From positions 147,560,001 through 147,624,000 of the forward strand of contig OZ024743.1 of NCBI GenBank assembly GCA_964016885.1: a stretch of 64,000 nucleotides of DNA. Reading direction: 5' to 3'. This DNA comes from Eledone cirrhosa (lineage: Eukaryota). Positions 35,229 through 61,270 of this stretch are shown here, piece after piece (positions within the stretch are counted from its first letter, which is position 1; each line of letters begins with the position of its first letter). Position numbers and translations under genes: made by a program. The notes beneath the pieces are model-generated. The model was not told where the DNA came from. It did not search any database and saw nothing but the letters and a program-made list of their open reading frames with translations.

Positions 35229-35472
35229 ATACGATATTAAACAAATGGAGACTATATTTATAAAACCATATTTATTTCATTATACATATTTCAGGGATAC
35301 CATATTAAATATGTATACCACTGAAATATGTATAATGAAATAAATATGGTTTTATAAATATAGTTTCCATTTGTTTAATATCGTATATCTACTCCAAAAC
35401 TTGTTGAGTGCTTTATATCAGTTATAAAATATTTACTCGTTGTAACCCAACAATTTTAAATAAAACTTTTAC
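35229..35472. mobile_element. Fold-back mini-copy of the main PLE pseudo-LTR
   Basis: 35229-35293 is the inverse of 35321-35386; the right arm continues to AAAACTTTTAC then (AT)n; matches 54451-54602. Confidence 0.9.
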
Positions 35473-35498
35473 ATATATATATATATATATATATATAT

Positions 35499-35687
35499 AT
35501 AGATGAGATTCTACAGACTACAACAGTTTCATTCTTTAGAAATCATCAGGAATCTGATGATTTCTATAGAATGAAACAGTTCTAGTCCTGTAGAATCTCA
35601 TCTATATTAAAACTTTTATACTGTGCTATGTACTGAGTACCTTACTTACTGTGGTTGCCTCCGATTCAACCCGGAATAACTTACCTT
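35499..35687. mobile_element. Fold-back HHR mini-element (family shared with 61129-61270 and 48985-49055)
   Basis: 35499-35548 is the inverse of 35554-35604; core CUGAUGA-UUUCUAUAGAAU-GAAA-CAGU-UC; (TA)n on both sides. Confidence 0.85.
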
Positions 35688-35878
35688 ATATATATATATA
35701 TATATATATATATATATATATATATATATATATATATATATATATATACATATATTTATTAGTTAAGCAAAACAAGACCACAAATTTCACAAGGAAGACA
35801 TTATTAAAAGATTATCAACATATTTAGTTTGATGTAAGGAATGTAGAGAATAATAATAATAATAATATCAATAATAAT

Positions 35879-36277
35879 AATTGTTTCTACTATTGGCACA
35901 ATGCCAGCAAAAACCCAGTACATTACTGGTACTTTATTTTATCGACCCCTTAAGGATGAAAGGCAAAGTCAACATCGGCGGGATTTGAACTCAGTCCGTA
36001 AAGGGACGTAACTGTGCTGCAAAGCATGGCGTCCGACCCTCTACCGATACTGCCAATTCACCGCCCATATTAATAATAATTGTTTCTACTTTAGGCACAA
36101 GGCCAGTAATTACCCAGTGCATTACTGGTACTTTATTTTATCGACCCCGTAAGGATGAAAAGCAAAGTCAACCTCGGCGGGATTTGAACTCAGATCGTAA
36201 AGGGACGTAACTATGTTGGAAAGCATGGCGTCCGACCCTCTACCGATACTGCCAATCCACCGCCAATCCACCGCCCA
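35879..36277 (-). mobile_element. Two tandem tRNA-derived SINEs
   Basis: Reverse-complement consensus at 35879-36066 and 36078-36277, each with an (AAT)n tail. Confidence 0.9.
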
Positions 36278-36730
36278 TATTAATAATAATAATGCCCGTT
36301 TACAATTGTTTCGCTATTCCGTATAATATTTCTGGATCAGATGACTATGTATCATAATTGATCTGGTTCAGTTGAAAATAATTAACATATTTAAAAAAAC
36401 AGAGTGGCTCATCGGAACTCAAAGGAATATAAATTAAAATAATGTTACATAATATAATGTTCCATATATTAGTTTTTACTATTTCCTTGTGAAATGTGTG
36501 GTCTTGTTTTGCTTAACTAATGAATATTTCCAGCTCTGCGCACCTAACCTCTGCATGAACCCAGCCACCTAGCTGCTTTCTACTGCATATTGCACATTGA
36601 GCACATGCCTTTACGCTTTGGCTTCTAACTAACTCACCAATCTTTCCTCTCATATCTCCTCTACTATCTCAATCTCTCTCTTTAAGATTGGTTACTCTTG
36701 AACTGTGTGTATATATATATATATATATAT

Positions 36731-37487
36731 GTCAGGTCACCAGCTGGTGCTACTGGTAACATGTGTACCAGTACAACCTGTCTCATGGTCGGGTCGTTGG
36801 CGACTAAACTGGCAACCCCACCAAGGTTTCTTGGTGAGGAGGGTGACTTTGGACATCCTGCAGGACTAAAAACAAAACCTCTCAAAGGGCAAAGGAGCTC
36901 TTAAGAGTCAATGGCCATCCAAAATCACCGGGAGAGATGACCCTTAACCTTTGTCAAGGCAGAATTCTAGGAGAAGGAAAACTCTGATATAACACCTGCA
37001 ACCCTGATGGTATCCAATGATGTTGACTTGTTCTTCTTTTTGGTAAATATCATCTTGGTTAAGAGAGTGGGACTGGCTTTGTGCAGTGCCTTTGCTCACT
37101 ATAAAAGCTTCGCGGCACAGGCATTGCTTTATATCTGGAGATCTCTCTGCACTTGTCGTCACATGGTACCATGGGCCCAGCACTATGTGTCAATAATTGT
37201 CACAAGTGTAGTGTTTGTACCAGAGTATATATATATATATATTGGGAGAGATGACACCTTAGCCTTTGTCAAGGCAGAATTATAAGAGAAGGAAAACTCT
37301 GATATAATACCTGCAACTCTGATGGTATCCAATGATGTTGACTTGTTCTTCTTTTTGATAAATATCGTCTTGGTTAAGAGAGTGGGACTGGCTTTGTGCA
37401 GTGCCTTTGCTCACTATAAAAGCTTCACGGCACAGGCATTGCTTTATATCTGGAGATCTCTCTGCACTTGTCGTCACATGGTACCAT
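36731..37487. mobile_element. ~605-bp repeat family, opposite orientation, with internal re-duplication (36731-37226; 37243-37487)
   Basis: Reverse complement of 12330-12822. Confidence 0.88.
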
Positions 37488-38240
37488 ATCATATTTACAT
37501 GCATATATATTTTTGTATAATATCAATATACACACTACACATGCTAGCAGAAAACCACCCGTAGAGGTAGTTTTTCTGCTAGTATAGTTAATGAAAACAG
37601 ACCAGGCGCTAACACACTGATGATTCGATTGTTTCATTCGTTTCACTGTGCCGAATAGTTAAGTAACTTACTTTGTATGTTAAATGTTTTGTCATATTTG
37701 ATAATACATTCAATGAGTTGTCTTCGCAGATATTGTCGGTTTCATAGAGTGGTTGAAGAAATATCTGGTGGCAAATGTAATAGGAGAGTCTAGCAAATAT
37801 TAAACATTTAATTTGTAGTAGTCACTACATTTGTTATGGTTTAAGCAAATGGAGAAGGGCAGCTTTCTTGAAATTTTCAGGATTTTCAACACCAATGGAC
37901 AAAGGGGCTGAGATAAAATTGATCGATGGATCACTACTAACATTTACTTTGAACTATGTAGGTAACCGAGAAGCAATATATATATATATGTATAGGTCAA
38001 ACGTAAAATTGAACAAAGATATATTTAAAGATCATCTTTTACTTTTTACCTCTAACATTGATTTGTATGGAATTTTAAAACCTTTTTTCTATTATATATA
38101 TAGTATTCAACTACAAATAACCTGGCCTCGAAAAGTCATCTTAGTCTATATATAAATATATTTTTTAGCACACAACTATCATATAAATATTTCTTTACGA
38201 TTTTCAGATCTGCAGTCATTATTTCATTTATTCTCCGCAA

Positions 38241-38430
38241 GGGGGGTGGAATGGCAGTATCAGTAGAGGGTCGGACGCCATGCTTTCCAGCATAGTTACG
38301 TCCCTTTACGATTTGAGTTCAAATCCCGCGGAGGTTGACTTTGCCTTTCATCCTTACGGGGTCGATAAAATAAAGTACCACTAATGCACTGGGTAATTGC
38401 TGGCCTTGTGCCTAAAGTAGAAACAATTAT
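38241..38430 (+). mobile_element. tRNA-derived SINE
   Basis: A-box, B-box and family core. Confidence 0.9.
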
Positions 38431-58810: not shown

Positions 58811-59189
58811 ATATATATATATATATATATATATATATATATATATATATATATATATGTATATATCCCTCTAATGTGTGTCGAAAGATTTCCACGAACT
58901 AACCAATAACTAATAATGATAAAGCTGAAGTGTAAGTCAATTATTGTGTGTGTTTTCATTGGCAAAATGGGCATCATGACCATTCGAAAATATAATAATA
59001 TATATATATATATATATATATATATATATATATATATATATATATATATATATATATATATATATATATATACAATGATATTAAATAATATCATTGTTAA
59101 TTAAATGTGAAATTGAAGTGGAAGATTTTTTATCCGATCTAATAAATGTGTGTTTATGTTTATACCAGCGTTCTTTGAATTTTGTAGTC

Positions 59190-59616
59190 AACGACAACTC
59201 CAGAAAATGTAACTGTAGAATTAAATAAAACTGCCCTTTACAAAATAAATGCTTAGACAAAAACGTAATTTATAAATGCACAGTTAAAACTAGGGACAAA
59301 GTATTTAACTATATTGGCGCCACTTCTATAAAATTCAAAGAATGCTGGTATAACCATACGCACACATTTAATAGATCTGATAAAAAAATCATCCACTTCA
59401 CTTTCACAATTCATTTGGAACTTAAAAGACAACAATATAGACTATCTCGAAAGCACCTGCATACCGAAATATGGCATTCTCAAGATTCTGTAACTTGTGT
59501 ATCAAGGAAATTTTTTATATAATTAACTGTCAAAATTCTATTAATCTTAAAACAGAATTATTTTCTAGTTGCAGACATAGCAATAATTCCACTTTCAGAA
59601 GTATTTTTAATTTATG
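59190..59616 (+). pseudogene. Decayed PLE GIY-YIG domain (missed by the ORF track)
   Basis: KCNCRIK*NCPLQNKCLDKNVIYKCTVKT....NYIGATS..FKECWYNH...SLSQFIWNLK...CNLCIKEIFYI...INLKTELFSSCRH. Confidence 0.9.
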
Positions 59617-60756
59617 ATATTCATTACACTTGACTATATGTTATACACCTTCAAAATGATCCTATTTTCTTAAAAAATTAAAATTTTTTAAATGATCTTC
59701 CTTCTTAATATTTTTAATATTTCTACTATTTTTACCATTTGACATTAATTTTTTTAATTTTTTAATATATTTTTTTACTATTTTCACCTTTTGATATTAT
59801 TTTCTTAATGATACCCCTCTAAATATATTTTTTTAGATGTAGATTGATAATCTTTTATTGACATTCTGAAAGTTTATCCTCTTTACGATAGTTCTTCGAA
59901 ATGCACATTACTTTTGTCCTTTCAAACTTTCACACATCTTTCGACTAAAATAATATATAATTGGAATTAATCTCACACAAAATAATATATAAATTTCTAT
60001 ATATATTTTCTGAGTAAATCATTCATGAAATTTAACGGTTAACAAACAAGATTGGAGTTATCTTTCCCTTTTCAATCGTGCAAACAGAAACATTATATTA
60101 TAATATAATATGTATGATAAACTATATAACTTCGCTAAATTAACAATATTCTGAAAACATTCTCAATGTGGGAACAAAATATTTGAATCTACAAATTGTT
60201 CTCCTCTTACAACTTGAACTGCGTGTTTTTTTATGTAAAATGCAAAATCAACACCTTCGTAACTCATATTAGAAATGTAAACAACTAATAATTGTAAATT
60301 ATTTCTATTTCAATAATACTTATACATGCACAATTATTAATCTATATAGATATTTATATACTTACAACCTATTGTAATGTAATAAGATAAATTCTTCATA
60401 TAATCTAATTGATTATATATGCAATATTATAACTCATAATATAGCTAAATAAATTTAAATTCTGGAATCATATTCCACCATTCCCGCAAATTGTTAATTC
60501 CTTTTAACTTAACGTAAATACAAGCTCTTCTTTCATGTTTTCCTCTTCCTACTCAGAACATATATCCTATTTATTTAAATTCTGCATAGCGTCTAAAATA
60601 ACGTGTTTTAGCCCTATACCTCAACCTCATTTGCATACTCATCTTAATAATTTTAAATATCTGACTTTCCTTCTCTTTTCCTTCACTATAAAAGAAAACC
60701 TTGAACCGCTAAAGTATCTTTTCTTGGTTATGTTAACATTTATAAAACATACTTTG

Positions 60757-60819
60757 TATTTTATCTGATGAAAGCGTACCAAAGTTTTGGTACCCTTGAA
60801 ATATATATATAATAGAATA
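60757..60819 (+). ncRNA. Minimal hammerhead ribozyme
   Basis: UAUUUUAU-CUGAUGA-AAGCGUACCAAA(GU)UUUGGUACCCUU-GAAA-UAUAUAUA-UA-AUAGAAUA. Confidence 0.82.
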
Positions 60820-60970
60820 AATATGGTTTTATAAATATAGTTTCCATTTATTGAATATCATTGAATATTATACTCCAAAATCTGTCGAGTGCTCTGAATC
60901 AGTTCTAAACATTGATATTTGCTGAATAACCAACAAATTGAATATCCCTTTTGCTTTTATATATATATAA

Positions 60971-61084
60971 TGAATAGGTCCGAGCATTTTATAATAACCT
61001 GAAATTGAAACAATCACAGGTGATAATTATCACCTGTGATTGTTTCATATGTTTATTTATATGTTAATCAATTTCTAGTTGTTA
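60971..61084. mobile_element. Fold-back fragment of the 9.1-10.0 kb family
   Basis: Central palindrome GAAACAATCACAGGTGATAATTATCACCTGTGATTGTTTC; arms match ~9785-9860. Confidence 0.75.
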
Positions 61085-61128
61085 TATATATATATATACA
61101 TAACTCCCGCCGATATACATATATATAT

Positions 61129-61270
61129 AAATGAGATTCTACAGGACTAGAACTGTTTCATTCATGAGAAATCATCAGGAATCTCATCTATATTAAAACG
61201 TATATACACTGCTTTGTATTGAGTCCCTTACTTACTGTGGTTACTTCCCATTCAATGCGGAATAACTTAC
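61129..61270. mobile_element. Fold-back sister of the 35.5-kb element
   Basis: Inverted HHR arm joined at GAATCTCAT to the same terminal ...GGAATAACTTAC. Confidence 0.85.

Follow-up and report, generated by a model that had tools for sequence, protein, structure and literature searches.

Two tandem bulged hairpins lie just beyond the end sites of Hydra-clade Penelope-like elements in Eledone cirrhosa and may position the start of reverse transcription

This report concerns the ends of a group of Penelope-like elements (PLEs) and their short relatives at positions 35,229 to 61,270 of a 64,000-nucleotide (nt) stretch of Eledone cirrhosa DNA, referred to as the window, whose numbering is used throughout. 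A preliminary description had placed seven elements here, each bounded by (TA)n, and all seven were found in place between (TA)n tracts. We assigned them to four families: A (the 7.9-kb element and the copy at 35229), B (35499 and 61129), C (42601 and 50372), and D (58387). Each element had been said to carry two opposed arms. Self-alignment confirmed this for those at 35229, 35499, 42601, and 58387, but the elements at 50372 and 61129 are not self-palindromes (best local self-scores 18 and 25) because the long arm is cut short, and only cross-alignment revealed their inverted short-end arm and forward long-end arm. Independent copies reuse the same two end points, as described, and the 7.9-kb element has both ends in common with the 35.2-kb copy. 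We call these end points the short and the long site and the one-sided stretch between them the tail. The features, including the small insertions (minis), the open reading frame (ORF), and the reverse transcriptase (RT) that it encodes, are as follows.

35232..35472: family A mini-insertion; inverted short-end arm (end 35232) and forward long-end arm (end 35472), with the centre inside hammerhead stem II
35391..35412, plus strand: family A hairpin 1 (ACTC...GAGT), 7 nt beyond the short site
35502..35686: family B mini-insertion; type I hammerhead core at 35554-35576 and variant hairpin 1 at 35620-35641
42604..42781: family C mini-insertion; both arms begin within the hammerhead; hairpin 1 at 42710-42736
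50375..50457: family C insertion; inverted short-end arm fused to the final ~30 nt of the tail
50479..54203, minus strand: inverted long-end arm of the family A element; tail, hairpin 1 (50538-50560), hammerhead (50625-50666), 3' untranslated region, and an ORF that reaches back almost to its start and is disrupted by indels
54204..58333, plus strand: forward arm of the family A element; a partial tandem that terminates at the short site
54299..54332, plus strand: candidate transcription start of family A with TATA-like and initiator-like motifs, where the 5' junctions of A appear to cluster
54415..54464, plus strand: type I hammerhead motif of the family A element; second copy at 58235-58284
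54514..54602, plus strand: family A tail, from the short site (54513) to the long site (54602); hairpin 1 at 54521-54543, with one substitution in this copy
54612..54632, plus strand: family A hairpin 2 (GCTC...GAGC), 10 nt past the long site; the ATG at 54652 lies 20 nt on
54652..56873, plus strand: family A ORF, Hydra-type RT with C-terminal GIY-YIG; a 1-nt indel near 54846 breaks the frame
58390..58810: family D mini-insertion; perfect 338-nt palindrome with centre CATATG (58553-58558); hammerhead at 58624-58670 and hairpin 1 at 58729-58756
61129..61270: family B insertion; inverted hammerhead arm and forward tailed arm

Arm ends were scored in a sample of 279 arms, for which we took the first 30 matches of each family along contig C1 and added 20 longer regions likely to contain long elements and another 80 regions; the pair statistics rest on samples from this chromosome. 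The short or the long site terminates 273 of the 279 arms, five arms read through into the ORF, and one ends elsewhere, which bears out the earlier claim of two fixed, family-specific, nonrandom registers. TA repeats follow 268 of the 273 ends, in keeping with (TA)n as the target and at the termini. When head-to-head neighbours within 7 kb were paired (n = 90), 85 combined a short with a long end, two were short+short, none was long+long, and three were of other kinds, where independent choice would be expected to give a short+long fraction of about half. This pairing supports the proposal that both target ends are primed. In short-read contigs of public runs, (TA)n loose ends occur at both family C sites in two runs from a single study and at the C long site in another organism.

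The lengths of the one-sided extension had been given as about 88, 81, 78, and 86 nt. The individual values held to within 2 nt (86 at 35229, 82 at 35499, 78 at 42601, and 86 at 58387), but the near-constancy ascribed to them did not: tails are 88 nt in A, about 68 nt in the commoner form of B, 80 nt in C, and 88 nt in D, and the 81-nt offset of family B in the window comes from the less common pair of ends. Nor does the hammerhead cleavage site act as the ruler, as the distance from the cut to the short end, read by eye, varies (about 49, 21, 17, and 43 nt). In each of the four families, by comparison, a bulged hairpin of the form RCTC-stem-loop-stem-TN-GAGY starts 3-10 nt beyond the short site. 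Full-length copies have a second hairpin 3-10 nt past the long site and 19-100 nt ahead of the ATG, seen in A, B (in reduced form), C, and D, and the leader runs in the order hammerhead, short site, hairpin 1, long site, hairpin 2, ATG. Since each end lies 3-10 nt before one of the two tandem hairpins, tail length follows hairpin spacing, which is 91, 71, 78, and 90 nt in A, B, C, and D against tails of 88, 68, 80, and 88 nt. The twin hairpins were first seen in A, and hairpin 2 was predicted for D and then found: when CTC was required 4-12 nt beyond the long end, most of the matches listed were one and the same read-through sequence carrying a complete hairpin. The registers of the preliminary description thus stood as fixed positions, whereas the hammerhead as their cause did not, the twin hairpins having been missed as register marks. 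The pair above the bulge (n = 57) is C-G in 38, T-A in 11, and T-G in four. The pair that follows is complementary in 38 of the 57, where 18 would be expected; these counts carry no correction for kinship. A separate observation at these sites is a family A fold-back joined to a family C element exactly at the C long site, upstream of the ORF (locus L268), which suggests a template switch between families at the hairpin.

Relatives from metagenome contigs (77 loci) showed the same arrangement in part. Among the 40 with an N-terminal match and at least 100 nt of upstream sequence, 17 have two hairpins, 13 have one, and 10 have none, with a spacing of 55-83 nt. As controls, the reverse strand gave 1 of 40; among 8000 shuffled sequences, 112 contained one hairpin and none contained two; and 10 of 361 ORF windows matched, the matches in the last being uninspected. 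A second terminal copy is present at 21 metagenome loci, of which we set aside eight at a contig end, one tandem, one spurious, and one ambiguous case. In the 10 informative 3' copies, eight ends lie 2-7 nt before a hairpin, one lies at -21, and one falls inside the hammerhead. The published Hydra-1_Amil consensus ends, by eye, 4 nt ahead of the hairpin of its relative L367.

The PLE origin first proposed for these elements was supported, and the supposed lack of relationship among the families was not: a separate Penelope-like ORF of Hydra-clade type is present in every family, and these ORFs are 41-50% identical to one another. Protein alignment revealed a single ORF with RT followed by a C-terminal GIY-YIG, in open frames of 718 (C) and about 712 (B) amino acids and in partial form in A and D. 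All four families have the N-terminal motif RWR/RWI (RWK in relatives) and SDKT, in which DKT replaces DKG; the CxCx5C linker reads CNCxxxxxC in A to D, and the endonuclease lacks a CCHH motif in the alignment. A Pfam scan returned no match for the family A protein, and its homologue P0001 carries PF01541. Identity to Hydra-like proteins is 40-42%, including 41% to P0063, which by eye nearly matches Hydra-2_Amil of the PMC8557442 supplement. From these motifs and identities, families A to D probably belong to the Hydra clade of C-terminal-endonuclease PLEs, a clade with (TA)n targets that carries hammerheads (PMC8557442). Hammerhead core motifs were matched by pattern in A, B, and D, and family C has a variant core, UUGANAA (U3 with A8), seen in locus L151 at 3001-3095. 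An Rfam scan of the window gave no hammerhead among the matches listed, which comprised repeat-driven microRNA noise and one transfer RNA (tRNA)-like match. Exact 24-29-nt anchors match 27,093 (A), 17,787 (B), 10,833 (C), and 1661 (D) places in the 3-Gb genome (G000), and reversed anchors for the four families gave 0 matches in the whole genome. Tandem arrays with a period of about 3.5 kb also exist, and in family C many open frames of 784 codons are naturally intact.

Comparison of paired arms revealed how the insertions may be assembled. In 12 family A pairs, 1.1 of 79 positions differ between the two arms of an insertion, compared with 9.1 when arms are taken from separate insertions, a near-identity that would point to one template or to later arm-to-arm conversion. 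Among 59 minis from families B to D, 28 have a tail-less arm that is longer at its 5' side (by at least 4 nt in 17), 18 have a longer tailed arm, and in 13 the two are equal. Because the tail-less arm so often extends further, copy-back from one complementary DNA (cDNA) was rejected, and with it the fold-back joining first envisaged, as neither arm of those 28 can be copied from the other. The joining by microhomology envisaged alongside it was upheld by junction overlaps of mostly 0-3 nt, or small inserts. Inter-arm sequences are distinct in 55 of the 59 minis (12/12 in B, 25/25 in C, and 18/22 in D, where five of the 22 have a common junction at a 6-nt palindrome); the minis are therefore made anew each time and do not form the distinct PLE-driven mini-element system that had been suggested. 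Long insertions have two arms of very different content.

The 5' ends of the arms pile up at a family-specific limit. In family C, 58 of 75 fall 23-34 nt above the anchor and none at 35-308; in D, 42 of 77 fall at 111-120 nt and none at 121-264; family B is less clean, with 35 of 65 at 18-31 nt. The limit coincides with an initiator-like motif, and TATA-like boxes occur at -30 (B) and -29 (C), with a weaker one in A. The pile-up is likely the transcription start, and the minis likely products of run-off at the 5' end of the messenger RNA (mRNA); a promoter in the pseudo-long terminal repeat (pLTR) is known for Drosophila virilis Penelope (PMC2377424). In family C, the candidate start falls inside the hammerhead, and the whole ribozyme would therefore be held by read-through RNA only.

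We hypothesize, with a probability of roughly 0.7, that the ends of Hydra-clade PLEs lie just before two tandem bulged hairpins, which position the enzyme to prime one cDNA on each side of a cut (TA)n target. The endonuclease would nick both strands of (TA)n, and each target 3' end would anneal to a TA-like stretch of 2-6 nt located 3-10 nt 5' of a hairpin. Both cDNAs would use one template, whether one RNA or one source locus, be copied towards its 5' end, and be joined head to head by end joining. The ordinary mRNA likely begins 50-190 nt upstream of the short site, and the minis would arise when both cDNAs run off its 5' end; read-through RNA from tandem copies, which the ~3.5-kb arrays can supply, would give kilobase arms and full elements. 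Minis are without hairpin 2, so they would not regenerate their own long end and are likely dead-end products. We lean slightly towards a specific form of docking, in which two RT-endonuclease molecules would sit on one RNA, each priming a few bases 5' of its own hairpin and both running to the RNA 5' end. Such a signal would compare with the template-boundary element of telomerase, here used twice. In L1 twin priming, both target strands prime on one RNA and produce an inversion; there, the second primer anneals at variable internal sites and the arms barely overlap, whereas the elements described here have two fixed sites and arms that copy one common sequence.

Several observations weigh against this interpretation. 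The covariation counts ignore relatedness and include some mis-anchored rows, isolated hairpins are weak (z -0.1 to -2.4), and, in family B, hairpin 2 is reduced and escapes the motif rule, with an additional short site 12-17 nt ahead of hairpin 1. Exact family C junctions number 22,634 at the long site, 7247 at the short site, and 316 with read-through, an excess of long ends only partly explained by subfamily variants; solo arms and subfamily variants near the short site together account for much of the gap. Inspection by eye of 40 further C long ends gave 22 with a short partner, one with a long partner, six whose partner lies beyond the fetched stretch, and 11 solo arms, and two-sided priming is thus not obligatory. 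The similarity of paired arms could also come from arm-to-arm conversion, the transcription start is deduced from motifs, and there is no TATA box at the family D 5' limit. A search for target-site duplications in the 85 pairs returned eight direct and four inverted flank matches, mostly microsatellite noise, and no target-site stagger was measurable. No strand-change joints were listed in the public-run contigs aligned to family C, and fold-back junctions are thus without confirmation from independent reads. As a separate feature of the flanks, host sequence of up to 54 nt is inverted-duplicated on both sides of some insertions (L090, L123/L124, and L181).

An alternative that we consider unlikely is that the hairpins are DNA cues for the endonuclease, whose resolution of a tandem or branched intermediate at two positions, staggered with respect to each other, would leave the tail on one side. 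The tail was indeed ascribed earlier to endonuclease resolution (PMC8557442), the D. virilis endonuclease required the tail for recognition (cited in PMC11167929), and RNA and DNA recognition are indistinguishable from end positions alone. However, the ends join (TA)n with TA-like microhomology, the hairpin sits beyond the end rather than in the inserted arm, and data for the PAc element place RT starts at the tail borders (PMC11167929). Distinctly unlikely, in our view, is fold-back self-priming, in which the inverted arm would be copied from a single primed cDNA folded on itself, a mechanism put forward for Penelope palindromes of rotifers (PMC3846280). It would suit the near-perfect palindromes, the subfamily variants common to paired arms, and the shared 6-nt palindrome junction of the five D minis; yet the longer tail-less arms cannot have been copied from tailed ones, a copy of a tail-less arm cannot acquire a tail, and the arms of long insertions differ too greatly in content.

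Still more doubtful is that the twin motif serves translation, promoter control of the ORF, or RNA packaging, the starts being set by TA-like microhomology or an unseen adjacent signal. The closeness of hairpin 2 to the ATG, the TA-like bases at every end, and the weakness of the hairpins speak for it, but further TA-like stretches in the AT-rich leaders go unused, and the ends shift with a spacing that ranges from 55 to 91 nt. Very improbable is the view that the minis are assembly artefacts caused by fold-back, or a class that propagates itself in the manner of miniature inverted-repeat transposable elements (MITEs) or retrozymes. A copy number in the tens of thousands and the hammerhead motifs would fit such a class, and palindromes can be read chimeras; against both, nearly every junction is different, the ends are fixed and asymmetric, the same ends recur in independent contigs, and each family has a coding parent. 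We accordingly rejected a MITE, given asymmetric ends and 55 distinct inter-arm sequences in 59 minis, and a retrozyme lacking long terminal repeats (non-LTR), given head-to-head arms, an often partial hammerhead, and coding parents.

Priming at two hairpins can be set beside published PLE systems. An inverted truncated copy with a one-sided tail of 30-40 bp is the typical PLE layout (PMC8557442, Craig et al. 2021); the arrangement here is the same, with tails of 68-88 nt outside that range. The Hydra clade has in common with our families RW(K/R), DKT, the CxCx5C linker, a C-terminal GIY-YIG without CCHH, canonical hammerheads, and the (TA)n target, but the available text of PMC8557442 gives no tail length, pairing rule, or twin hairpin for the clade. 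In vitro work on Poseidon PAc of Anolis placed the borders of the tail at two internal sites of RT initiation; cleavage and extension occur on both strands of the target, and the reaction requires RNA 3' of the starts but not hammerhead cleavage (Frangieh et al. 2024, PMC11167929). Those starts lie in an AC-rich stem-loop within the ORF, with no duplicated signal reported in the main text, and had no strand preference in vitro, whereas the pairs described here nearly always combine a short with a long end. Adineta vaga Penelope has head-to-head inverted pLTRs with an optional tail (Arkhipova et al. 2013, PMC3846280), and the inverted 5'-truncated copy, the one-sided tail, the palindromic junction, and the TATA and initiator-like motifs in the pLTR are common to both systems; the explanation there is self-priming on an antisense template, while arm lengths here favour two separately primed cDNAs. 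Animal non-LTR retrozymes are likewise short, noncoding, hammerhead-bearing PLE derivatives, but consist of head-to-tail tandem units, in contrast to head-to-head stubs of coding families with varied junctions (bioRxiv 10.64898/2026.07.22.740005). The window itself holds a retrozyme-like, TA-flanked 434-nt head-to-tail hammerhead repeat family on the minus strand (43498-43723, 61915-62689, and 8898-9084).

Other repeats lie elsewhere in the window. A fifth TA-flanked family with opposed arms (10147-10646 and 26955-27125) has neither a hammerhead core nor the twin-hairpin motif; its one-sided extension is about 34-48 nt by eye, and the 10.1-kb copy has a tRNA-like stretch at 10254-10324. Older relatives of family A at 8341-8714 and 60738-60960 have the hammerhead, hairpin 1, and the long end, and a hairpin-2-like remnant lies at 60970, after a short TA run. 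A (CT)n-(TA)n-(GA)n core between 122-nt inverted arms, the whole flanked by TA, occupies 44144-44539. Two more decayed fragments of PLE-type RT or endonuclease lie at 29676-30721 and 59170-59590 (weak RVT_1 match; tblastn). A common short interspersed element (SINE)-like repeat of about 190 nt, unrelated to the finding, is present at 4587-5386, 19160-19362, 27873-28084, 35869-36290, 38240-38439, and 42954-43146.

The basic layout and two start sites are already published, and because of that layout (PMC8557442) and the in vitro start sites (PMC11167929) the core of the idea in the preliminary description was already known. A literature search found no report of twin hairpins, a pairing rule, or a start-site pile-up; three points, deduced from sequence, appear to be new, namely the duplication of the signal, the pairing of short with long ends, and the derivation of minis from run-off. 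PLEs are the closest relatives of telomerase RT, and their start-site choice, one-sided tail, and inverted copies have been puzzling for two decades. If true, docking of two enzymes on one RNA would by itself explain why there is a tail, why short ends pair so strictly with long ones, why inversions are head to head, why tandems are needed, and why mini-inserts number in the tens of thousands. The PLE start-site question becomes directly testable, in in vitro assays that already exist and with intact natural copies, given an RNA signal that is short, conserved, and duplicated and that obeys a strict pairing rule; such a signal would also be a portable cis-signal for RNA-templated insertion. 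By implication, many MITE-like palindromes of aquatic invertebrate genomes may be retroelement stubs.

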